Of a DNA stretch of 64,000 nucleotides, positions 5,746 to 52,022 are shown piece after piece. A program made the position numbers and the translations under genes. The number at the start of each line of letters is the position of its first letter. The first letter of the stretch is position 1. The notes below the pieces were generated by a model. It saw nothing but the letters and a program-made list of their open reading frames with translations. It did no database searches and was not told where the DNA came from. Origin of the DNA: Minisyncoccota bacterium (GTDB lineage: Bacteria > Patescibacteriota > Minisyncoccia > Phycocordibacterales > JBAYLF01); NCBI GenBank assembly GCA_041664205.1, contig JBAYLF010000001.1:67380-131379 (forward strand). Direction: 5' to 3'.

Positions 5746-6406
5746 GAATGCTTATTATTTCAAGACATTGCTTCTCCACAGCATCCGCAGACTGATTGGC
5801 ATCGATAATCTCGCAAGGAATACAGGGTAAAGAATCTTGATATCCTTTAGCCATTCTTTCATAGAAATCCTGATATCCTTTAGCCATTCTTTCATAGAAC
5901 CATCGAGGCTGATCATGGAAATGATGCGATATATCAGGACGAGCTTTATATCTCTTCTCAGCAACATCAAGATCAACGTTCAGATATATATACAAATCTG
6001 GAGCATTAAATGCATAAAATCTTCTCGCCTCAAAAAACCAATCTTTAAGAACAGGATATCCTCGTTCATATATCTGAATAGCATAAGTTGAGCTATCAAA
6101 TCTGTCACAAATAACATTTGCGCCTGATTTAATGGCTGGCGCTATAAGTTTTTGAACATGATCAATGCGTGCAGCCGTGATCATAAGAAAATCGACAGCA
6201 ATATCAGCACCTCTGGCTTCTTCAGATAAAATCACCGTTCTTAGTTTTTCAGCAAGAGGAGATCCGCCCGGCTCTCGTGTAAAAACAAAACTTTCCGAAG
6301 AAAGTTTAGCTTTTAGATTTTTTATCAGCGTAGTTTTGCCCGAACCTCTTATACCATCAACAACAATGAACTTGCCTTTCTTGTTTTTCATAGTTTCTTC
6401 GCCCAT
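5735..6406 (-). CDS. tmk: Thymidylate kinase (contains an in-frame 33-bp tandem duplication)
   Basis: P-loop VVDGIRGSGKTT and a dTMP kinase-like core. FYERMAKGYQD occurs twice in tandem, from identical 33-nt units at 5839-5871 and 5872-5904. Confidence 0.85.
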   Translation of the reverse strand: MGEETMKNKKGKFIVVDGIRGSGKTTLIKNLKAKLSSESFVFTREPGGSPLAEKLRTVILSEEARGADIAVDFLMITAARIDHVQKLIAPAIKSGANVICDRFDSSTYAIQIYERGYPVLKDWFFEARRFYAFNAPDLYIYLNVDLDVAEKRYKARPDISHHFHDQPRWFYERMAKGYQDFYERMAKGYQDSLPCIPCEIIDANQSADAVEKQCLEIISILVK

Positions 6407-44789: not shown

Positions 44790-45074
44790 TTAAGATTTAC
44801 GCAATGTAGTTGGTCCATCTATACGACGATTCTTTCGTGCTTTTTTAGCAAGTTTTTCAAATCTATTGAAACAAAACTTGCATTTTTCAGCATGGTCCAT
44901 CATATAGTACCAATCACTCATAGATACTTGAGCAGGATCATTTGCTCCTGTTTCAAGCAACTCCTGCATTTTTGCATTAATTTGTTTAGGAGTAACTCCT
45001 TCTTTACTCCAACGTTCTTTTTGATCTTTAGAAGGTGTTAAAAATGTGCATTTTTCTTTTTTCTTTTTTACCAT
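44790..45074 (-). CDS. Hypothetical basic protein
   Basis: ORF only. The C-terminus has Cys pairs (CKFCFNRF). Confidence 0.3.
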   Translation of the reverse strand: MVKKKKEKCTFLTPSKDQKERWSKEGVTPKQINAKMQELLETGANDPAQVSMSDWYYMMDHAEKCKFCFNRFEKLAKKARKNRRIDGPTTLRKS

Positions 45075-45189
45075 ACCTATATTTTCCTTTCTTTTTCAGA
45101 TTTTAAATCCAAATATAAAATACTACATTTATAATTTTATGTCAAATTTTGATACCGAAAAAAAGATGACTTTGAAGCCATCTTTTTTG

Positions 45190-45208
45190 GTGCGGGATGG
45201 GAGAATCG
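45190..45208 (-). repeat. Direct repeat of the 3' end of tRNA-Gly(UCC) (att-like)
   Basis: gtgcgggatgggagaatcg, identical to 45345-45363 inside and next to the tRNA. Confidence 0.75.
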
Positions 45209-45345
45209 GTCACAACTCTTTTGCTTCGCAAAAGGTCGCGACCCCGGCTCGCTTTTTTGTAAGACAAAACATGGCTCCGCCTTTCGATTCTCCACGCAGG
45301 CAAAGCAGTTTGCCTGCTCATCCTGCTCGCTCACTTTGTTCGCTG
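45209..45345. other. 137-bp GC-rich structured insert between the tRNA-Gly(UCC) gene and the partial copy of its 3' end
   Basis: Homologous to the insert at 48294-48430. It contains the hairpin gcaggcaaactgctttgcctgc and an inverted copy of the host T-arm (ttcgattctcc). Confidence 0.6.
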
Positions 45346-45416
45346 TGCGGGATGGGAGAATCGAACTCCCACCCACAGTTTGGAAAACTGTTATTCTACC
45401 ATTAAACTAATCCCGC
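45346..45416 (-). tRNA. tRNA-Gly (anticodon UCC)
   Basis: Manual fold: acceptor GCGGGAT/ATCCCGC, anticodon stem ACAGU/ACUGU, loop UUUCCAA, T-arm GGGAG-UUCGAUU-CUCCC, discriminator A. 71 nt with CCA not encoded. Confidence 0.75.
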
Positions 45417-45487
45417 GCTTTTGTTATAATTTAGCAAATTAATATCATATTCGCAATTTTTTCAATTTACTGTTATATAATTAACTC

Positions 45488-46666
45488 ATGTTTAATTTAT
45501 TCAACACAATACAAATAAAAATTATTTCTTCTTTTTTAGCTATAATAAGCCTTTTTAGCTTTAACAAATTCCCCATCGTAGAAAATACAAATCCTAGAAA
45601 CCAAGACCAAACAACAGAAATTAATCAACAAATAAAAGAACCTGAAAAAATAACAATCGAAGAAACTAAAAAAACGGAACAAAAAACAACGGAAATAAAA
45701 CCTATTCCCCTACCGGAAAATAAAAAATTAGTTAATACCACATCAACTGAACAAAAAACCATTTCCAGCACCACAATACAAACAATTCAGCAGCCAGTAA
45801 AAATAAACATTCCTGATAATAGCAAACCTTGGACTCAGATAAATACTGAAACAAGACCGGCAATTGTTAATATTTTTTGCATATCAGAAGGTTCTTCATT
45901 AAGTGTTGCCGCTGGTAGCGGTATTATTATCGACAAACGAGGTGTAATTCTAACAAATTCTCATGTAAGCCAATATTTTCTTTTACAAAATATTCCAGAA
46001 TTACAAAAAATCTCTTGTTATATAAGAGATGGTGATCCAGCAAAAATGCTTTATAAAGCCAAACTTCTTTATTTACCTAAAGATTGGATTGAGGATAATT
46101 ATAAAAAATTAAAATTACAAAACCCTCTCGGGACAGGTGAATTTGATTTTTCGTTGTTATTAATAACCCAAACCATTGATCCTCAAACACCCTTCCCTAC
46201 TGAATTTCCATTTTTACCAATAGATTTTTCAGAAATTACAGAAAAACAAGATGTTTTGATCGCAGGATATCCAGCTGGTTTTCTTGGTAATTTAGAGATA
46301 CTTTATAATCTCTATAAAGCTTCGGCTGTTACAAAAATTAATGATGTTCTTACATTTTCAAAAAATAATATTGATTTAATAAGCGTTGGCGGAACAGTGA
46401 TATCTCAAAAAGGCTCTTCTGGTGGAGCTGTAGTAAACAATAAAGGAGACTTAATAGGTCTTGTGGTAACAACGACCGACGCAACAACAACATCATCTAG
46501 AGATCTACGAGCAATTACAACAGCATATATAAACAGAGCCTTTGAAAATCAAAAAGGCTTAAATATTAAAGATTTTCTATCAAGAAATCTGAATGTGGAG
46601 GCAAACAGATTCGAAACTGAAGATGCTCCAAATTTAACCAAAAAGCTTTTGGATGGAATTAAATAG
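45488..46666 (+). CDS. Secreted trypsin-like (S1 family) serine protease
   Basis: Signal/TM, GSGIIIDKRGVILTNSHV (His region) and GSSGGAVVN (the GxSGG catalytic Ser motif). Confidence 0.7.
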   Translation: MFNLFNTIQIKIISSFLAIISLFSFNKFPIVENTNPRNQDQTTEINQQIKEPEKITIEETKKTEQKTTEIKPIPLPENKKLVNTTSTEQKTISSTTIQTIQQPVKINIPDNSKPWTQINTETRPAIVNIFCISEGSSLSVAAGSGIIIDKRGVILTNSHVSQYFLLQNIPELQKISCYIRDGDPAKMLYKAKLLYLPKDWIEDNYKKLKLQNPLGTGEFDFSLLLITQTIDPQTPFPTEFPFLPIDFSEITEKQDVLIAGYPAGFLGNLEILYNLYKASAVTKINDVLTFSKNNIDLISVGGTVISQKGSSGGAVVNNKGDLIGLVVTTTDATTTSSRDLRAITTAYINRAFENQKGLNIKDFLSRNLNVEANRFETEDAPNLTKKLLDGIK

Positions 46667-46716
46667 ATTTAGAGCCTGTTCATAATCTAACCGCAAATTA
46701 ACAAACAAAAACAATG

Positions 46717-46833
46717 CTTGCCTGCTAAAATGCTAAAATTTTGGCTGCAAATTACTCATTCCTCCTCGCCGTATCACCGATATGTCTCGTCGGACTTCAT
46801 GATTTTCGCTCAAAATTTTAGCATTTTTGCTAG
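46717..46833. repeat. About 117-bp element with 25-nt terminal inverted repeats around a GC-rich core
   Basis: Left arm tgcctgctaaaatgctaaaattttg; right arm caaaattttagcatttttgctaggca, whose reverse complement tgcctagcaaaaatgctaaaattttg is near-identical to the left arm. Confidence 0.45.
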
Positions 46834-46836
46834 GCA

Positions 46837-47145
46837 TTAGATTCTGAACAGACTCTTAGATAATCTGATAATTTCATCAAAATTATCATTTTCGTTGATC
46901 TTATTCTTACTTTCTTGTCCACATTTCTGACATTGATGAATTAATGAATATCTTTCTCCAATTTTTAAAACGCTTATAGGCTTCATTAAGCCATGGCAAT
47001 CCTCTTCCCTATCACCTGGATTTATATCCACATGCTTACTCCAGAGGCATTTAGGGCAATGATTAGTGTAACCATTACCTTTTACACTGATACCACAATT
47101 TCCACACACAAAATCTTCAATTTTTCTTTGAAATTGTTTAGTCAT
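46837..47145 (-). CDS. RNHCP-domain zinc-ribbon protein
   Basis: FVCGNCG...YTNHCPKCLWSKHVD matches the RNHCP signature, and CQKCGQ is a second zinc ribbon. Confidence 0.6.
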   Translation of the reverse strand: MTKQFQRKIEDFVCGNCGISVKGNGYTNHCPKCLWSKHVDINPGDREEDCHGLMKPISVLKIGERYSLIHQCQKCGQESKNKINENDNFDEIIRLSKSLFRI

Positions 47146-47173
47146 TATAAAAAATATAAAAGTATTACTTAAT

Positions 47174-47195
47174 TTGTCGGGGTGCCGAGATTTGG
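47174..47195 (-). repeat. Direct repeat of the 3' end of tRNA-Pro(UGG) (att-like)
   Basis: tttgtcggggtgccgagatttg, identical to 47337-47358. Confidence 0.75.
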
Positions 47196-47336
47196 CCGCG
47201 ACTCTCGGCTCGTCAAACTCGCCTCGGTCTGGCCACCGCCTCGCGGCCTCGCTTGCTAGCTCGGCATCGCTCCGGCGTTCAAATCTCGGTGCAAGTGAAG
47301 CAGTTCACTTGCACCAACTTTGTATTAAATTTTAAT
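47196..47336. other. 141-bp GC-rich structured insert 3' of tRNA-Pro
   Basis: Contains the hairpin ggtgcaagtgaagcagttcacttgcacc (CTGC-containing loop, as in the Gly inserts) and an inverted copy of the host T-arm, ttcaaatctcgg. Confidence 0.55.
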
Positions 47337-47340
47337 TTTG

Positions 47341-47411
47341 TCGGGGTGCCGAGATTTGAACTCGGACTGTATGCTCCCAAAGCACATATGCTACCGTTAC
47401 ACCACACCCCG
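47341..47411 (-). tRNA. tRNA-Pro (anticodon UGG)
   Basis: Manual fold: acceptor CGGGGUG/CACCCCG, anticodon loop UUUGGGA, T-arm CCGAG-UUCAAAU-CUCGG. Confidence 0.7.
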
Positions 47412-47476
47412 ATTTATCACATAGTATCATACCGATAAATAAAAAACAAAAAACTCATAAAAGACATAGTCTCTTA

Positions 47477-47896
47477 TTAATCAATGATTATATTGGACAA
47501 CAATTTAACTTTAGCCTCCTTGCTATTTTGATTCAAAAGAACAGTGACAACATCAAATTGCCACTCTTTTTTATCATCTAGCTTATAATCAAGCAAATAA
47601 GTCTGAATAACTCTTGATAATCTCTTCAATTTCCAAGGATGAACATTGTCTTCAGGTCTAAAATTAGAGTTTGTTTCATCAGAAACATCTAAAAAATTTT
47701 CACGTGTAACAGTTTTTACTTCAATAAAATGAATAATATCCTTATTTTCAGCCACTATGTCTATTTCTCCCCAATTTTTTCGGTAATTTCTGTTTAAAAT
47801 CTTAAAAAATCTCTTTTCTAAAAATCTACAGGCAATATCTTCGCCTAATTTACCTACTTTATTGTAATTTATATTAAATTGTTTCATGTAAAACAT
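47477..47896 (-). CDS. yraN: YraN-family (UPF0102) endonuclease-like protein
   Basis: GEDIACRFLEK...GEIDIVAENKDIIHFIEVK matches the UPF0102 core. Confidence 0.7.
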   Translation of the reverse strand: MFYMKQFNINYNKVGKLGEDIACRFLEKRFFKILNRNYRKNWGEIDIVAENKDIIHFIEVKTVTRENFLDVSDETNSNFRPEDNVHPWKLKRLSRVIQTYLLDYKLDDKKEWQFDVVTVLLNQNSKEAKVKLLSNIIID

Positions 47897-48272
47897 TTAA
47901 ATTACCACCAAATATGATCAATTATGCAATTCTTACTTTCTTATTTTTATAATAAAATCATTAATTCGGCTTAAAATTCATTAATTTTGTTGTTTTTATA
48001 GCAATGTTTCTTATGTAACATTTTTTAATGTTTCATATGAAACAAAAACTGGGGATAAGATTAAATATTTAATAACTTCTTTTTAAATAGCTGGAATTTT
48101 CAAAAAGTCATTCATTAAAGCCATTTTTTAAAAAGTCAGAGACATACTTTAGGACAAAAAATTACTGTCTTTTTCACCAATCCACAGGGTTATCCACATT
48201 TATGAGTATTTTGTTGATAATTACCGCTTAATCTTATAAGAAAATAACCTCTAAAAGAGGTGTTTTCTCGAT

Positions 48273-48293
48273 CTGTGCGGGTAGGGAGAATCG
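48273..48293 (-). repeat. Direct repeat of the 3' end of tRNA-Gly(GCC) (att-like)
   Basis: ctgtgcgggtagggagaatcg, identical to 48431-48451. Confidence 0.75.
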
Positions 48294-48430
48294 ATCACAA
48301 GTTTCCTCAATCCGTTCGGAACTCGCGATCCCGCCTCGCCTGTTTTGCTAGGCAAAACATGGCTCCGGCTTCCGATTCTCCACGCAAACAAAGCAGTTTG
48401 TTTGCTCTACCTGCTCGCTCACTTCGTTCA
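48294..48430. other. 137-bp GC-rich structured insert 3' of tRNA-Gly(GCC), homologous to 45209-45345
   Basis: Shares caaaacatggctccg..ttccgattctccacgca..caaagcagtttg...cctgctcgctcact with the other Gly insert. Its hairpin gcaaacaaactgctttgtttgc shows compensatory changes relative to gcaggcaaactgctttgcctgc. Confidence 0.6.
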
Positions 48431-48433
48431 CTG

Positions 48434-48504
48434 TGCGGGTAGGGAGAATCGGACTCCCGTCTCATCCTTGGCAAGGACGTGTTCTACCACTAAACCATAC
48501 CCGC
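48434..48504 (-). tRNA. tRNA-Gly (anticodon GCC)
   Basis: Manual fold: acceptor GCGGGUA/UACCCGC, anticodon stem CGUCC/GGAUG, loop UUGCCAA, T-arm GGGAG-UCCGAUU-CUCCC. Confidence 0.75.
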
Positions 48505-48748
48505 ATGTTTATAACATTATACAAAAAAACTTATTTTTACAAAATTCTATACTTTTATGACTTAACTTATCCACACATGGCAAGATCCGTCATTCTGCAA
48601 ATTAATGTGCACCCGGCAGGATTCGAACCCACAATAACGGTTCCGAAGACCGTTGTGATATCCATTTCACCACGGGTGCAATATACTCGAACAAAGTAAT
48701 AATACGATAAATTAGCGAAAAAACCAAATTTATAATAAAATATTTATC

Positions 48749-50263
48749 ATGTTTAAGTTAAATAATAAAAATGAATTCAAAATACCTATTGAAATTGCTA
48801 AAATTTCAAAAACCTTAGAGAAATCCGGGTTTGATAGTTATCTAATAGGGGGTTGCGTTAGAGATTTATTAATAGGAAAAAAACCAAAAGACTGGGATTT
48901 AACAACAAATGCTACACCTGAACAAATAATATCCTTATTTGAAGAGACTTTTTATGAAAATGACTATGGAACTGTTGGTGTTATAAATAAAGATGTTTCT
49001 GATGAAACATTAAAAGTCGTTGAAATTACTCCTTACAGATTAGAATCTGAATATTCCGACAAAAGAAGGCCTGATTCTGTAATTTTTAGTAATAAACTAG
49101 AAGATGATCTAAAAAGAAGAGATTTTACCATAAATGCTATAGCTGTAAGGATAGAACAACCAGAAAATGGTGATGATTTATATAAAGGACAGATTATTGA
49201 TCCTTATAAAGGACAGGATGACTTGAAAAATACCCTTATTAAAGCTGTGGGCGACCCAAATGAAAGATTTAAAGAAGATGCGCTTCGTATGATTAGGGCC
49301 ACAAGATTAGCAACTGAATTATCTTTTGATATAGAAAAAGAAACTAAAGAAGCAATTAAAAAGGATGTGGATTTATTGCAACATATATCAAAAGAAAGAA
49401 TAAGAGACGAATTTACTAAAACCTTAATGTCTGACCATCCAAAAGACGGCCTTATTCTTAATCACGATTTGGGTATTCTTAAATTTATGGTGGAAGAATT
49501 GGAGAAGGGGATTAATATAAAACAAAATCAGGCACACTCATTTGATGTTTGGGAACATACTCTTAAAACACTTCAGCACTCAGCGGATAAAAAACTATCG
49601 CTTGAAGTTAGATTAGCAGCGCTTTTCCATGATATTGCTAAACCACAGACTAGACGCTGGTCAGAAGAAAAAAATGATTGGACATTCTATGGTCATGATG
49701 TAGTTAGTGCAAGAGTTGCTACAAAATCACTTTCAGAATTAAAATTCCCTAAAAAAATAATAGAAAAAGTTATTAAACTCGTTCGTTGGCATATGTTTTT
49801 CTCTGATACTGAACAAATTACTCTTTCGGCAGTTAGAAGAATAGTTAGAAATGTCGGACCAGATAATATTTGGGATCTTATGAATCTCAGAATGTGCGAT
49901 AGAATAGGCACAGGAAGGCCTAAAGAAAGCCCTTATAGATTAAGAAAATACCAATCAATGATAGAAGAAGCTTTAAGGGAACCAATATCTGTTGGAATGC
50001 TTAAAATAAACGGTAGTAAGTTAATGGAAATTACAAAGCTTAATCCTAGTCCTAAAATAGGGTATATATTACACGCTCTTTTTGAAGAAGTTATTGAAAA
50101 TCCGAAATTAAACACAGAAGAATACTTATCAGAAAAAGCGATCGAAATGTCAAAAATGTCTGACAATGAATTAAAAGAATTAGGTGAAAAAGGAAAAGAA
50201 AAAAAGGAAGAGGAAGAGGAAAAAGTAATAGAAGAGATAAGAAAGAAATATTGGGTAAAATAA
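48749..50263 (+). CDS. cca: CCA-adding enzyme / poly(A) polymerase-family nucleotidyltransferase with HD domain
   Basis: IGGCVRDLLIGKKPKDWDLTT (the GG...RD..DxD polymerase-beta motif) and a C-terminal HD domain (FHDIAKP). Confidence 0.85.
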   Translation: MFKLNNKNEFKIPIEIAKISKTLEKSGFDSYLIGGCVRDLLIGKKPKDWDLTTNATPEQIISLFEETFYENDYGTVGVINKDVSDETLKVVEITPYRLESEYSDKRRPDSVIFSNKLEDDLKRRDFTINAIAVRIEQPENGDDLYKGQIIDPYKGQDDLKNTLIKAVGDPNERFKEDALRMIRATRLATELSFDIEKETKEAIKKDVDLLQHISKERIRDEFTKTLMSDHPKDGLILNHDLGILKFMVEELEKGINIKQNQAHSFDVWEHTLKTLQHSADKKLSLEVRLAALFHDIAKPQTRRWSEEKNDWTFYGHDVVSARVATKSLSELKFPKKIIEKVIKLVRWHMFFSDTEQITLSAVRRIVRNVGPDNIWDLMNLRMCDRIGTGRPKESPYRLRKYQSMIEEALREPISVGMLKINGSKLMEITKLNPSPKIGYILHALFEEVIENPKLNTEEYLSEKAIEMSKMSDNELKELGEKGKEKKEEEEEKVIEEIRKKYWVK

Positions 50264-50697: not shown

Positions 50698-51642
50698 CTA
50701 TTTATTGTGAAATTTTTTGTAAATGTCTTTGAGATGTTTGTCTATTATGTGTGTATAAATTTGAGTGGTAGTGATATTTGCATGTCCTAAAAGCATTTGG
50801 ACGGAACGAATATCTGCACCGTTTGCAAGTAAATCTGTAGCAAAGCTATGTCTTATTATGTGAGGGGTAACTTTTTTTGTAATACCCGCTTTAATTGCAT
50901 AGTATTTTACAATTCTTTCTATATGTCGTGGGGTTAACCTATTATCTCTTGTTTCTTCATTAGAAAGTCTTGTTGGAACAAAAAGGGCATCCTCGGTATC
51001 TGCACGCTTATCCAAATACTTTTTTATAGATTCTTTTGCATTTTCCGAAAGGAAAACAACTCTTACTTTTTCACCCTTTCCTCGTATTGAAAACTCATCT
51101 TTTTTTAGATCTAGATCACGCGACAATGAGCATAATTCAGCTAAACGTAGTCCTGTTGAGAAAAAAAGTTCTAATATGGCTTTATCTCTTAAGCTTTTTA
51201 AATCGTTTCCATCTGGAGCATCAAGAAGACGTTTTAATTCATCTATCGAGATCAAATCTACTGTTCTTTCAGGGACTTTTGCTAGATCAATCCTATCTGG
51301 AGAAAGAGTTTTAAAGTTTCTTTTAATTAAATATTTAAGAAATGTGCGTAAAGAAATCAAATAATAGTTTTGGGTTCTCTTTTTAAGTGTTTCATTTGAT
51401 ACTTTTGATGATTGCCTGTTAAGCCAAAGGCGAAATTCGCGAATATTATCGTCTGTTATTTCTTCTGGTTTTGTAATTTTTATAAAACCTAAAAAACGTG
51501 TGAGATAATGATCATAGTTTTCAATAGTTTTTAAACTGCGTCCTTTCTCAATTTCTAAAGATTCAAGAAATTCTCTTTTTAATTGATTTATATCTTTTAT
51601 CATAAATTCATAAATTAAGGTCGCACAATATAATAATACCAC
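50698..51642 (-). CDS. Tyrosine site-specific recombinase (XerC/XerD-like integrase)
   Basis: RHSFAT and LLGHANITTTQIYTHI (the R-H-R-Y catalytic tetrad region). The true start is probably MIKDIN at 51603. Confidence 0.8.
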   Translation of the reverse strand: MVLLYCATLIYEFMIKDINQLKREFLESLEIEKGRSLKTIENYDHYLTRFLGFIKITKPEEITDDNIREFRLWLNRQSSKVSNETLKKRTQNYYLISLRTFLKYLIKRNFKTLSPDRIDLAKVPERTVDLISIDELKRLLDAPDGNDLKSLRDKAILELFFSTGLRLAELCSLSRDLDLKKDEFSIRGKGEKVRVVFLSENAKESIKKYLDKRADTEDALFVPTRLSNEETRDNRLTPRHIERIVKYYAIKAGITKKVTPHIIRHSFATDLLANGADIRSVQMLLGHANITTTQIYTHIIDKHLKDIYKKFHNK

Positions 51643-51755
51643 TAATTATATTTTTTAAATTCAAAATAATGTTAATTGTCAAAAAACGACCTATTTTCTA
51701 AGGATAAGCGATTTTGCTTGCAAAGAATATGGATTTATGCTATTGTGTTTAAACC

Positions 51756-52022
51756 ATGCTTACAAAGAATAAAAAGCAAAAAGTTATAAAAGAATTCCAA
51801 GTTCACGAGACTGACACAGGATCTTCTGAGGTTCAGGCTGCAGTTTTAACCAAAAGAATCGACGAACTTGCAAGTCATCTTAAAAAACACCCTAAAGACA
51901 ATCACTCAAGAAGGGGACTTCTTCAAATGGTTGCCGATAGACAGACATTTCTTAAGTATCTCAAGAAGAAGAACGAGAAAAGCTACAAGACAGTGATCAA
52001 AAAACTCGATCTTAAGAAATAA
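51756..52022 (+). CDS. rpsO: 30S ribosomal protein S15
   Basis: 88 aa, with HSRRGLLQMV..R.LKYL, a typical S15. Confidence 0.9.
   Translation: MLTKNKKQKVIKEFQVHETDTGSSEVQAAVLTKRIDELASHLKKHPKDNHSRRGLLQMVADRQTFLKYLKKKNEKSYKTVIKKLDLKK

Follow-up and report, generated by a model that had tools for sequence, protein, structure and literature searches.

Three transfer RNA (tRNA) genes in a 64,000-nucleotide (nt) stretch of a Minisyncoccota genome (GenBank assembly GCA_041664205.1, contig JBAYLF010000001.1, positions 67,380 to 131,379; the whole stretch is called the window here) are each followed by a structured insert of 136-142 nt and then by a second copy of their own 3′ end. The question raised by this locus is what these inserts are and how they come to match the tRNA genes beside which they lie. 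The analysis described here suggests that they belong to an apparently undescribed, protein-less family of structured mini-elements, and our best reading, to which we give a probability of about 0.4, is that the family is a selfish, non-autonomous insertion element, which is targeted by base pairing and has no dedicated protein.

The tRNA genes, all on the minus strand of the window, were placed using ARAGORN and Rfam. At tRNA-Gly(UCC), tRNA-Pro(UGG) and tRNA-Gly(GCC) the direct repeats were exact on recounting over 19, 22 and 21 nt, with start-to-start spacings of 155, 164 and 158 nt and inserts of 136, 142 and 137 nt (Table 1), which is within 1 nt of the 137, 141 and 137 base pairs (bp) given in an earlier, sequence-only reading of this DNA. 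Each repeat starts at C56 in the T loop and ends 1-4 nt beyond the discriminator. The fourth tRNA of the cluster, tRNA-Arg(UCG), has no insert. The inserts are GC-rich against a genome background of ~33% G+C. The homology proposed for the two Gly inserts was evident as 86% identity across 119 nt, and their hairpins, GCAGGCAAA-CUGC-UUUGCCUGC and GCAAACAAA-CUGC-UUUGUUUGC, differ by a GG-to-AA change that is compensated by a CC-to-UU change; a hairpin loop with CUGC is likewise present in the Pro insert. The inverted copy of the T arm described in the sequence-only reading is real and reaches further than was claimed, because a second arm across the CUGC hairpin is complementary to the acceptor 3′ strand, so that both arms together cover tRNA nt 54/55-73. 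A 41-nt motif common to the three inserts occurs three times in the window compared with 0.07 occurrences expected, the folding z-scores of the tRNA-plus-insert stretches against shuffled sequences are -7.8, -6.8 and -5.0, and a covariance model run on the window detected exactly three copies at 123-129 bits, with the next match at 16 bits. The shared motif, the folding z-scores and the covariance scores are not due to chance.

When one genome per bacterial species was scanned with the motif AACTGCTTnnnnTGC-N13-19-CGGAGCnATG, taken from the window, at least 120 loci were obtained, three of which were chance matches within open reading frames (ORFs). A covariance model built from 24 copies found 133 copies in loci L001-L100 and ~30 more in L101-L120, which makes ~165 in total among the loci listed. 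Further copies next to tRNAs, which the sequence-only reading had proposed to look for, are thus numerous: among the matches listed, 88 of 126 motif instances sit 5-87 nt downstream of a tRNA on the same strand, and elements are known only from the 3′ side of tRNA genes and in the same orientation as the tRNA. Together with the three window copies this gives 91 tRNA-linked elements, which represent 37 anticodons and 19 isotypes, and in 57 cases at least 15 nt from the 3′ part of the tRNA are repeated exactly after the element. The length of the element across the family is ~140-200 nt. The carriers among these matches are Patescibacteria (Paceibacteria, Saccharibacteria, Yanofsky-, Kuenen-, Uhr-, Gribaldo- and Komeili-bacteria, and others) and Elusimicrobiota (Elusimicrobiales and Endomicrobiales). 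A few metagenome-assembled genomes (MAGs) labelled Gammaproteobacteria, Muribaculaceae, Eggerthellaceae, Clostridia or 'Spirochaetes' also carry elements, and because these are of the Elusimicrobia or Patescibacteria type, the contigs are probably mis-binned. Parelusimicrobium proximum Dip518, which is on record under a strain name with a complete genome and therefore appears to be a cultured isolate, is among the carriers as well, with an element behind tRNA-Val(UAC) at about 1.737 Mb of NZ_CP015019.1.

On the tRNA strand, the order of the parts from 5′ to 3′ is tRNA, tip, first arm, CUGC hairpin, second arm, core, and the second copy of the tRNA tail (copy 2; the tail of the tRNA gene itself is copy 1). 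The tip is either an intrinsic-terminator-like hairpin or a GA module, CGAAC-NAA-GUGAG, as in both Gly copies of the window. The first arm is the complement of trailer, discriminator and the 3′ strand of the acceptor stem, and the second arm that of the 3′ strand of the T stem and of the T loop as far back as U55/U54. Between them lies the invariant hairpin, with the consensus A-GCAnnnnAA-CUGC-UUnnnnUGC-G, which usually splits the arms near the boundary of the T stem and the acceptor stem. The core consists of helix Pa (nnC/Gnn), a GGA/GA internal loop, helix Pb (GCn/n′GC), AU, the variable hairpin Pc, the junction GG(G/U), and helix Pd with its hairpin. Pd occurs in three variants (GUCGCGA.../...UUGUGAC, GCCCAGAC... 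and CCGGCCUGCAGG...), and copy 2, comprising tRNA nt 56-73, abuts it with zero spacer.

Some copies depart from this architecture. A remnant in L130 (1100-1160) and the copy in L007 (~325-480) have continuous antisense arms and no CUGC hairpin, while those in L066 (5187-5340) and L033 (2238-2383) carry the CUGC hairpin at the tip of a trailer hairpin and have no anti-T arm. In L036 (7011-7176), L093 (376-560) and L035 (2263-2424) the arms seem matched to flanking non-tRNA or trailer sequence, and the 3′ ends that stand in place of the tRNA tail are ...GUGACCACAG in L036 and L093 and ...CCUAACCAUG in L035, where the copy lies beside the 5′ end of an antisense tRNA-Lys.

The alignments indicate that the fold has been maintained. 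In a hand-checked alignment of 24 sequences, 85% of the pair cells were standard pairs, compared with 64% after column shuffles and 32-42% with slid partners, and the covariation score was 0.55 versus 0.18. In the 133-sequence alignment (A3), which is model-fitted and leans toward structure, all 54 modelled pairs showed double compensatory changes and 88% of the cells were paired, compared with 61% in shuffled columns; the slid-partner control gave 32-45% across the alignments. Judged by this covariation, the secondary structure of the elements is under selection. The covariance analysis and the family scan together bear out the suggestion that the inserts form one family of miniature elements that are non-autonomous, linked to tRNAs and under selection for their secondary structure.

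The same alignments bear on which strand folds. There were 299 G-U and 125 A-C oppositions overall, and 166 versus 40 in the core helices, while one Pd position was G·U in 50 of the 111 sequences with letters at that pair. The excess of G-U over A-C means that it is the tRNA-sense strand that folds. Oppositions of G and A were also frequent (391 cells), many of them, by eye, in tandem CGAG/CGAG contexts. Among 266 terminal loops, 14 were GNRA and none was UNCG, while C(GNA)G and C(GUCA)G loops were frequent. The active molecule may be either RNA or sense-strand single-stranded DNA (ssDNA), and both are in play. In favor of RNA are the predicted co-transcription of tRNA and element in the window and the conserved G·U pairs; in favor of ssDNA are the terminators located between tRNA and arms in at least 21 of the 91 elements (by eye in about half) and the composition of the loops.

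Loops of the types C(GNA)G and C(GUCA)G, sheared G·A pairs and GCGAAGC motifs are hyperstable in DNA hairpins. This background bears on an explanation that overlaps with our best reading, namely that the element is a folded ssDNA recombination site. If the sense strand became exposed, either on the lagging-strand template or following uptake of DNA, copy 1 and the arms would fold into a duplex version of the 3′ part of the tRNA gene, and a host tyrosine recombinase (Xer) or another ssDNA enzyme would insert or excise the element in a manner resembling the integron attC site or the CTX-phage attP hairpin. The dominance of C(GNA)G triloops and C(GUCA)G loops, the frequent tandem sheared G·A pairs in CGAG, and the recurrence of GCGAAGC mini-hairpins are consistent with this explanation, and a structure that does not depend on transcription fits the terminators between tRNA and arms. 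The tandem arrays described below and the direct repeat starting in the T loop also resemble integrative elements. On the other hand, conserved G·U(T) pairs and a core of invariant sequence are more typical of RNA, copy 2 is often unlike the tRNA in just those T-loop nucleotides where strand exchange needs identity, and the strain on a double-stranded circle as small as 140-200 bp would be severe. Hence, and also in the light of the recombinase data given below, we regard an ssDNA site acted on by host enzymes as unlikely.

To describe how the elements match their tRNAs, the pairing of the arms was compared with both copies of the tail. The arms together are the Watson-Crick complement of tRNA nt 54/55-73 and of the local trailer, and at essentially every locus shown a three-way junction extending from U54 to the end of the second arm is predicted, with energies of -21 to -80 kcal/mol. 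In this predicted junction, helix 1 is formed by the T loop and the T-stem 3′ strand with the second arm, helix 2, often a perfect palindrome of 20-40 bp, by the acceptor 3′ strand, trailer and tip with the first arm, and helix 3 is the CUGC hairpin. At places where the tRNA stems contain G·U pairs or mismatches, 34 of 35 arm nucleotides form a Watson-Crick pair with the 3′ strand, and because of this the idea that the arms are copies of the tRNA 5′ strands, left from a degenerate second tRNA gene, was rejected. The share of G·U among the arm pairs is only ~4%. Copies 1 and 2 differ at 102 positions. At only 19 of these would the nucleotide of the arm that pairs with copy 1 be able to pair with copy 2 as well, in a comparison that rests on the copy-1 fold and is able to show only failure with copy 2.

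Of 67 scorable examples of copy 2, 31 are exact over nt 56-73, and in the others the mismatches are concentrated at nt 56-60. Among the 31 exact cases, 28 have a repeat that begins at position 56, while the end of the repeat lies +0 to +7 nt past the discriminator, and sometimes >30 nt past it. Although the three repeats in the window are exact, the interpretation as a classic att duplication fits poorly, because a crossover in the T loop would demand identity at nt 56-60, where copy 2 often differs, and because the repeat end is variable. A complete tRNA gene is always retained, with copy 1 completing the tRNA. In the predicted minimum-energy folds of the Gly-GCC and Pro copies, the 5′ acceptor strand of the tRNA pairs with copy 2 and copy 1 is held in the clamp, which would turn the entire element into a looped-out insertion in the T loop; the corresponding fold of the Gly-UCC copy is a hybrid of both states. 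In the alternative state the tRNA would be normal and the arms closed on copy 2, with all pairings satisfied too. These models suggest that the design permits two complete, mutually exclusive folds.

Another explanation is a ribozyme or intron-like T-loop element, whose junction core would reversibly cleave and ligate at positions 55/56 and swap the 3′ half of the tRNA. The conserved three-way-junction core is located at the point to which the arms bring tRNA position 55/56 and equally at the GUGAC|C56 junction of copy 2, the same arm could accommodate either copy of the repeat, whose 5′ boundary (C56) would then lie against Pd and the conserved junction nucleotides AAn, GG(G/U) and GGA/GA, and the fixed start of the repeat at position 56 and the minimum-energy folds showing a T-loop insertion also agree with this possibility. 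However, a scan with Rfam 15 at E values up to 10 over positions 44800-48900 returned only tRNAs and chance matches outside the inserts, with no match to a self-cleaving ribozyme (HDV-like, hammerhead, twister, pistol, hatchet and others) or to an intron model. For 32 elements without a detectable upstream tRNA, no tRNA could be rebuilt with copy 2 in a test that was run alongside a control, and an obligatory T-loop intron was thereby rejected; since copy 1 already completes the tRNA, splicing is never required. In addition, copy 2 often lacks the correct T-loop nucleotides or has an insert in the T stem, and a DNA stage would need reverse transcription, for which no reverse transcriptase was identified. 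We consider this explanation highly unlikely. The Rfam scan of the whole window at gathering thresholds also gave tRNAs only, no T-box, tRNA-binding or tRNA-like family matched in the window, and ARAGORN found no transfer-messenger RNA there; with no Rfam match, a known RNA family was rejected as well.

The distribution of the elements among genomes is patchy. Among the 170 co-oriented tRNAs of the same loci, 88 are followed by the motif and about half are not. L121 is syntenic with the window over the CCA-adding enzyme, tRNA-Arg, tRNA-Gly(GCC), YraN (61% identical) and tRNA-Pro. In this relative tRNA-Gly(GCC) is empty, which provides an insert-free ortholog of a filled window site, tRNA-Arg has a decayed copy while that of the window is empty, and tRNA-Pro is followed only by a ~55-nt remnant and a degenerate tail copy. 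Since other copies and an insert-free orthologous tRNA exist, the pattern that the sequence-only reading had named as refuting it, an ordinary conserved trailer with neither insert-free alleles nor further copies, was not seen. In L125 a decayed copy lies behind tRNA-Gly(GCC). No close relative of the window species is represented in the protein database, where the next YraN match is 65% identical. Identical tandem units were found in L116 (2.6 units), L072, L076 and L099, the last unit usually being truncated. Behind tRNA-Leu in L074, a complete element of one Pd type is followed by a 3′ remnant of another type and a third tail copy, and L130 has a second remnant, lacking the CUGC hairpin. 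Comparison of the cores showed that the nearest neighbor was from the same phylum in 89 of 89 cases, and recent transfer between phyla was rejected on this basis, while only 21 of the 89 nearest neighbors belonged to a tRNA with the same anticodon (2.4 expected by chance). As the nearest neighbor is mostly on another anticodon, core lineages have moved among tRNA types within each phylum. As a separate observation, the tRNA-Val and tRNA-His elements of L074, a Parcubacteria MAG, share an unusual ~50-nt insertion in Pc (2400-2500 and 5895-5960, minus orientation).

The best-sampled orthologous site is tRNA-Val(GAC)/uppS of the Elusimicrobiaceae (UppS 86-100% identical), where every strain examined has an element; relatives beyond this clade have no tRNA at that locus. 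The elements at this site fall into two strongly divergent versions, in which the helices are kept through compensatory changes, copy 2 contains a 3-nt insert of free sequence between conserved flanks, and the arms also complement the locus-specific trailer AUUUUUAUU. Several side observations were made here. A 15-nt deletion distinguishes the otherwise identical contigs L126 and L127 (~1200-1235), removing the 5′ half of the T arm of tRNA-Val in L126, where the tRNA is no longer detected. In L055 and L133, an intact element follows a tRNA-Val(GAC) upstream of uppS that ARAGORN does not call and whose D-arm region is aberrant. In L126, L127 and L130-L132 a gene for a phage-type integrase immediately precedes tRNA-Val (positions 1 to ~1030), and the sister strains L129 and L133 have the same element without this gene.

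The retention of the element at tRNA-Val/uppS across a genus-level clade, with compensatory changes, is the best support for a host-useful function, and the alternative already raised in the sequence-only reading, a conserved tRNA-linked structured RNA, is the main live rival, which we hold to be possible, if somewhat unlikely. The element would then be a cis-acting tRNA-trailer RNA, co-transcribed with the tRNA or reached by read-through of a terminator, and could serve as a conformational switch, a quality-control device, a tRNA-like processing signal or an aptamer-like core responding to some global cue. In the first two cases, arms closed on copy 2 would free the tRNA, or the arms would invade its 3′ half and trap or re-route it. 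Copies would multiply by local duplication and would often be lost. Such a role agrees with a structure seen on the tRNA-sense strand only, with its conserved G·U pairs, with the constant downstream and co-oriented position, with the conserved flanks of copy 2 around a freely varying insert, and with two mutually exclusive, fully paired folds, which are typical of switches. In the window itself, tRNA and element are not separated by a terminator, and each Gly element has a terminator-like hairpin after its copy 2. Yet the elements behind a canonical intrinsic terminator would be poorly transcribed, about half of the neighboring tRNAs do without an element, clearly decayed copies persist, and GNRA and UNCG loops, a hallmark of functional structured RNAs, are rare or missing. 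There is also no consistent downstream gene, and the stacking of unlike copies at one tRNA is hard to explain by function.

To identify a partner of the element, 1254 ORFs from the 120 listed loci were clustered, which gave no recurrent neighboring protein, the only clusters being pilins, TypA and similar proteins. No recurrent downstream gene family was found among the element loci, and a cis-regulator of a downstream gene was rejected on this ground. There was likewise no recurrent ORF family near the elements that could be an adjacent DEDD recombinase or TnpA/TnpB, and no autonomous relative sharing the ends of the element among the 120 listed loci. No conserved ORF was seen by eye inside the 136-142-nt inserts of the window. 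The conserved GGAGCnAUG resembles a ribosome-binding site and start, but hand translation of the window copies gave 20, 17 and 3 codons in different frames, and a coding role was therefore rejected. The motif scan of viral contigs gave 0 matches, and blastn against plasmid and phage collections gave no match. Tyrosine-recombinase homologs occur in 2 of the 120 listed loci and are not adjacent to the element.

The sequence-only reading had also offered the XerC-like integrase gene of the window as a possible source of mobility, and this proposal was not supported. The gene product matches XerD/XerC/XerA models and scores 143.5 bits against the integron-integrase cut-off of 265; the gene adjoins rpsO, as it does in the relative L125, and by these matches and its neighborhood it is a housekeeping gene and not an element-borne integrase. 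The presence of an Xer-type recombinase in the genome is a point for the ssDNA site discussed above, but Xer enzymes act on dif sites and are not known to act on tRNA sequences of every isotype, and no recombinase co-occurs with the elements. The integrase data also speak to the possibility that the inserts are ordinary scars of larger integrase-bearing islands or prophages, consisting of attL/attR and an attP fragment. Such events classically leave a direct repeat that spans the tRNA from its T loop to its 3′ end, and a phage-type integrase gene does lie beside tRNA-Val in some Elusimicrobiaceae strains. That gene, however, lies on the upstream side of the tRNA, and sister strains without it still have the element; no integrase lies inside any of the elements, they have no similarity to phage, plasmid or viral contigs, and ~165 copies share one covarying architecture with tRNA-specific antisense arms across two phyla and 19 isotypes. 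Scars of this kind are extremely improbable as an explanation.

We therefore return to the selfish, base-pairing-targeted insertion element as our preferred reading. The combination of intact, tandem, overlaid, decayed and empty sites, of cores hopping between tRNAs, and of no association with a host gene is the pattern that would be expected of a homing-type passenger. Such an element would find tRNA genes by base pairing and not by a dedicated protein, and would spread from tRNA to tRNA within a lineage, undergoing tandem amplification, overlay by new copies, decay and loss. Near-perfect Watson-Crick arms extend into locus-specific trailers, forming palindromes of up to ~40 bp, which suggests that hairpin-templated copying (quasi-palindrome correction), with the selected tRNA copy as template, could write the arms or keep them perfect; such copying might start from pairing with the universal T loop, and retargeting would thereby be explained. 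The looped-out fold would bring position 55 beside copy 2, which is the geometry needed for insertion or loss across the 56-73 repeat, and it also predicts the tandem arrays and losses that are seen. Insertion itself might proceed by host recombination or template switching across this repeat, or by RNA catalysis at 55/56. A more specific form of this mechanism is doubtful in our view. It holds that the element is a protein-free mobile RNA or ssDNA programmed by base pairing, in which the arms capture the 3′ half of the tRNA, the core catalyzes strand exchange at 55/56 or recruits a host enzyme for it, and the arms are re-templated for each target. If true, this would be a minimal 'homing' system, able to retarget itself to any tRNA without encoding a protein.

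Several points weigh against the selfish-element reading. The arms of ~20 nt and a copy 2 of ~18 nt would have to be rewritten for each new tRNA, and no enzyme or catalytic motif was identified. No reverse transcriptase for an RNA-to-DNA route was identified either, although reverse transcriptases beyond those of group II introns were not searched for; the only related paper found, on group I introns that interrupt anticodon loops in Patescibacteria, reports that group II introns are absent from this phylum (PMC13011429). No insertion event was caught between close relatives; the Elusimicrobiaceae strains are all filled at tRNA-Val/uppS. The retention at that site looks like purifying selection in place, which turnover by re-invasion may mimic. 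The evidence on empty versus filled sites comes from the distant L121 and may reflect loss instead of gain. Finally, the sample was drawn with a motif and favors intact copies, and the lean of the larger alignment toward structure counts here as well.

Provided that the family is what it seems, an abundant and apparently unrecognized component of tRNA loci, occupying roughly half of the tRNA genes in the sampled regions, is present in two large groups of small-genome bacteria. It bears on how a non-coding element targets and retargets itself, on how streamlined genomes tolerate or exploit passengers, and on the handling of tRNA 3′ ends in organisms that do not encode CCA. The logic of arms plus scaffold would also be of interest for the design of programmable nucleic-acid tools, and if Dip518 is cultured, the question is directly testable.

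Table 1. Window coordinates of the elements, their tRNAs and neighboring features
Feature	Position	Strand	Remarks
tRNA-Gly(UCC)	45345-45416	-	repeat copy 1 (nt 56-73(+1)) at 45345-45363
Gly-UCC element, long-hairpin tip	45327-45344	-	GA module CGAAC-AAA-GUGAG; C(NAA)G triloop on tandem G·A pairs; no terminator
Gly-UCC element, anti-acceptor arm GCAGGAUGA	45318-45326	-	pairs with tRNA nt ~65-72
Gly-UCC element, invariant hairpin GCAnnnnAA-CUGC-UUnnnnUGC	45296-45317	-	
Gly-UCC element, anti-T arm GUGGAGAAUCGAA	45283-45295	-	pairs with tRNA nt 54-64
Gly-UCC element, core arm	45246-45282	-	Pa (nnC/Gnn), GGA/GA loop, Pb (GCn/n′GC), AU loop, variable hairpin Pc; includes conserved CGGAGCnAUG and GCGAG
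Gly-UCC element, junction GGG, helix Pd and its hairpin	45209-45245	-	GUCGCGA/UUGUGAC, conserved G·U; final GUGAC immediately before copy 2
Gly-UCC repeat copy 2	45190-45208	-	tRNA nt 56-73(+1); then CCA (45187-45189)
Intrinsic-terminator-like hairpin	45158-45188		after Gly-UCC copy 2
Imperfect palindrome, 130 nt	46705-46836	-	directly 3′ of small ORF 46837-47145
tRNA-Pro(UGG)	47340-47411	-	repeat copy 1 at 47337-47358
Pro element	47195-47336	-	AT-rich tip 47318-47336; anti-acceptor arm ~47311-47317; CUGC hairpin 47288-47315
Pro element, rest		-	anti-T arm 47277-47289; core arm 47238-47276; junction and Pd (GGUGGCCAGAC... variant) 47195-47237
Pro repeat copy 2	47173-47194	-	22 nt exact; followed by an ORF starting at 47145, no terminator between
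tRNA-Gly(GCC)	48433-48504	-	unusual C55; repeat copy 1 at 48433-48453
Gly-GCC element	48296-48432	-	GA-module tip 48415-48430; anti-acceptor arm 48406-48414; CUGC hairpin 48384-48405
Gly-GCC element, rest		-	anti-T arm 48371-48383; core arm 48333-48370; junction and Pd 48294-48332
Gly-GCC repeat copy 2	48275-48295	-	21 nt exact
Terminator-like hairpin	48238-48261		after Gly-GCC copy 2
DnaA boxes TTATCCACA, perfect	48190, 48567		near-boxes at 48050 and 48212; region 47897-48600
tRNA-Arg(UCG)	48607-48679	-	no insert
CCA-adding enzyme gene	48749-50263		adjoins the tRNA cluster
Xer-type recombinase gene	50698-51642		with rpsO, 50698-52022

Some further features of the window deserve a brief description. 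The T loop of tRNA-Gly(GCC), TCCGATT, has C55 where U55 is near-universal, and the anti-T arm of its element has a compensating G. None of the four tRNA genes of the window encodes CCA. After the tRNA-Gly(UCC) gene the sequence reads CAG, and after copy 2 of its element come an encoded CCA and a terminator. The proximity of the CCA-adding enzyme gene to the tRNA cluster and that of the Xer-type recombinase gene to rpsO are both conserved among the relatives L121, L123 and L125. The imperfect palindrome between the Gly-UCC and Pro elements has a GA-rich center, a predicted RNA fold of -41.8 kcal/mol (z = -4.2) and no Rfam match; it has TTTTGCTAGGCA in common with the Gly-GCC element, and may be another structured element. 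The DnaA boxes lie in the AT-rich spacers around the Gly-GCC element, and because they coincide with the minimum of the cumulative GC skew (~46-48 kb), the region 47897-48600 is a candidate replication origin. Similar TGTGGATAA boxes occur after tRNA-Gly(GCC) in L039, with weaker look-alikes in L121.

In a literature search, outside which subscription-only literature lay, no paper describing the element was found. The impression from the sequence-only reading that no equivalent system is known agrees with the literature, Rfam, phage and plasmid searches. The element was compared with the known systems that it resembles in part. Tyrosine-integrase islands and prophages of the T-loop sublocation class share with it the direct repeat that begins in the T loop and stops shortly beyond the tRNA 3′ end, the intact tRNA, the tandem or stacked insertions with decaying distal copies, and the patchy presence among relatives. 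In contrast to these, the element is 140-200 nt long and not kilobases, has no integrase in or near it, and contains antisense arms and a covarying single-strand fold, while its copy 2 is often non-identical in the T loop. Like miniature inverted-repeat elements (MITEs) and cis-mobilizable remnants of integrative elements (CIMEs), it is small, non-coding, multi-copy and non-autonomous, but it has no terminal inverted repeats (its inverted repeats are internal, between arms and tRNA tail), its flanking repeat has a fixed start at nt 56 and a variable end (+0 to >+30 nt), its target is matched by ~20 nt of internal antisense, and no autonomous partner was found.

The integron attC site and the CTX-phage attP(+) site are similar in that a single strand rebuilds a duplex 'site' from two inverted halves, stem structure is conserved over sequence, the terminal structure is variable, and DNA-type triloops are present. 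The element differs from them in targeting the tRNA gene of any isotype and not attI or dif, in its additional sequence-invariant hairpin and ~90-nt core, and in the absence of IntI. Its T loop is GTTCGAA and not the GTTRRRY of attC, no core-site consensus was seen by eye (no scan was made), and its arrays contain no cassettes. HDV-like 'theta' ribozymes of gut phages are compact structured RNAs too, placed directly 3′ of a tRNA and transcribed together with it; unlike them, the element matches no HDV-like or other ribozyme model, has anti-tRNA arms and a duplicated tail, and is chromosomal, with none in viral contigs.

The use of base pairing to select a target, with a conserved scaffold and variable guides, is shared with the IS110 bridge/seek RNA, the IS200/605 omega RNA and the exon-binding sites (EBS) of group II introns, and the position beside terminator hairpins recalls group IIC introns, which insert after terminators. 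In contrast to these guide-RNA elements, no recombinase, TnpB or reverse-transcriptase gene was found near the element, its fold is unrelated (no Rfam match), and it carries both a sense and an antisense copy of its target. The primer-binding site of retroviruses and long terminal repeat (LTR) elements is similarly complementary to the 3′-terminal ~18-20 nt of a specific tRNA, into the T loop, but the arms of the element are interrupted by a hairpin, lie in cis beside the tRNA gene, and have no retroelement context. Because the element falls short of every one of the compared systems in the defining tests that could be run, we rate this as a new kind of element, set apart from every system tested by its combination of a conserved scaffold, exact antisense arms for the tRNA tail, and a spare copy of that tail.

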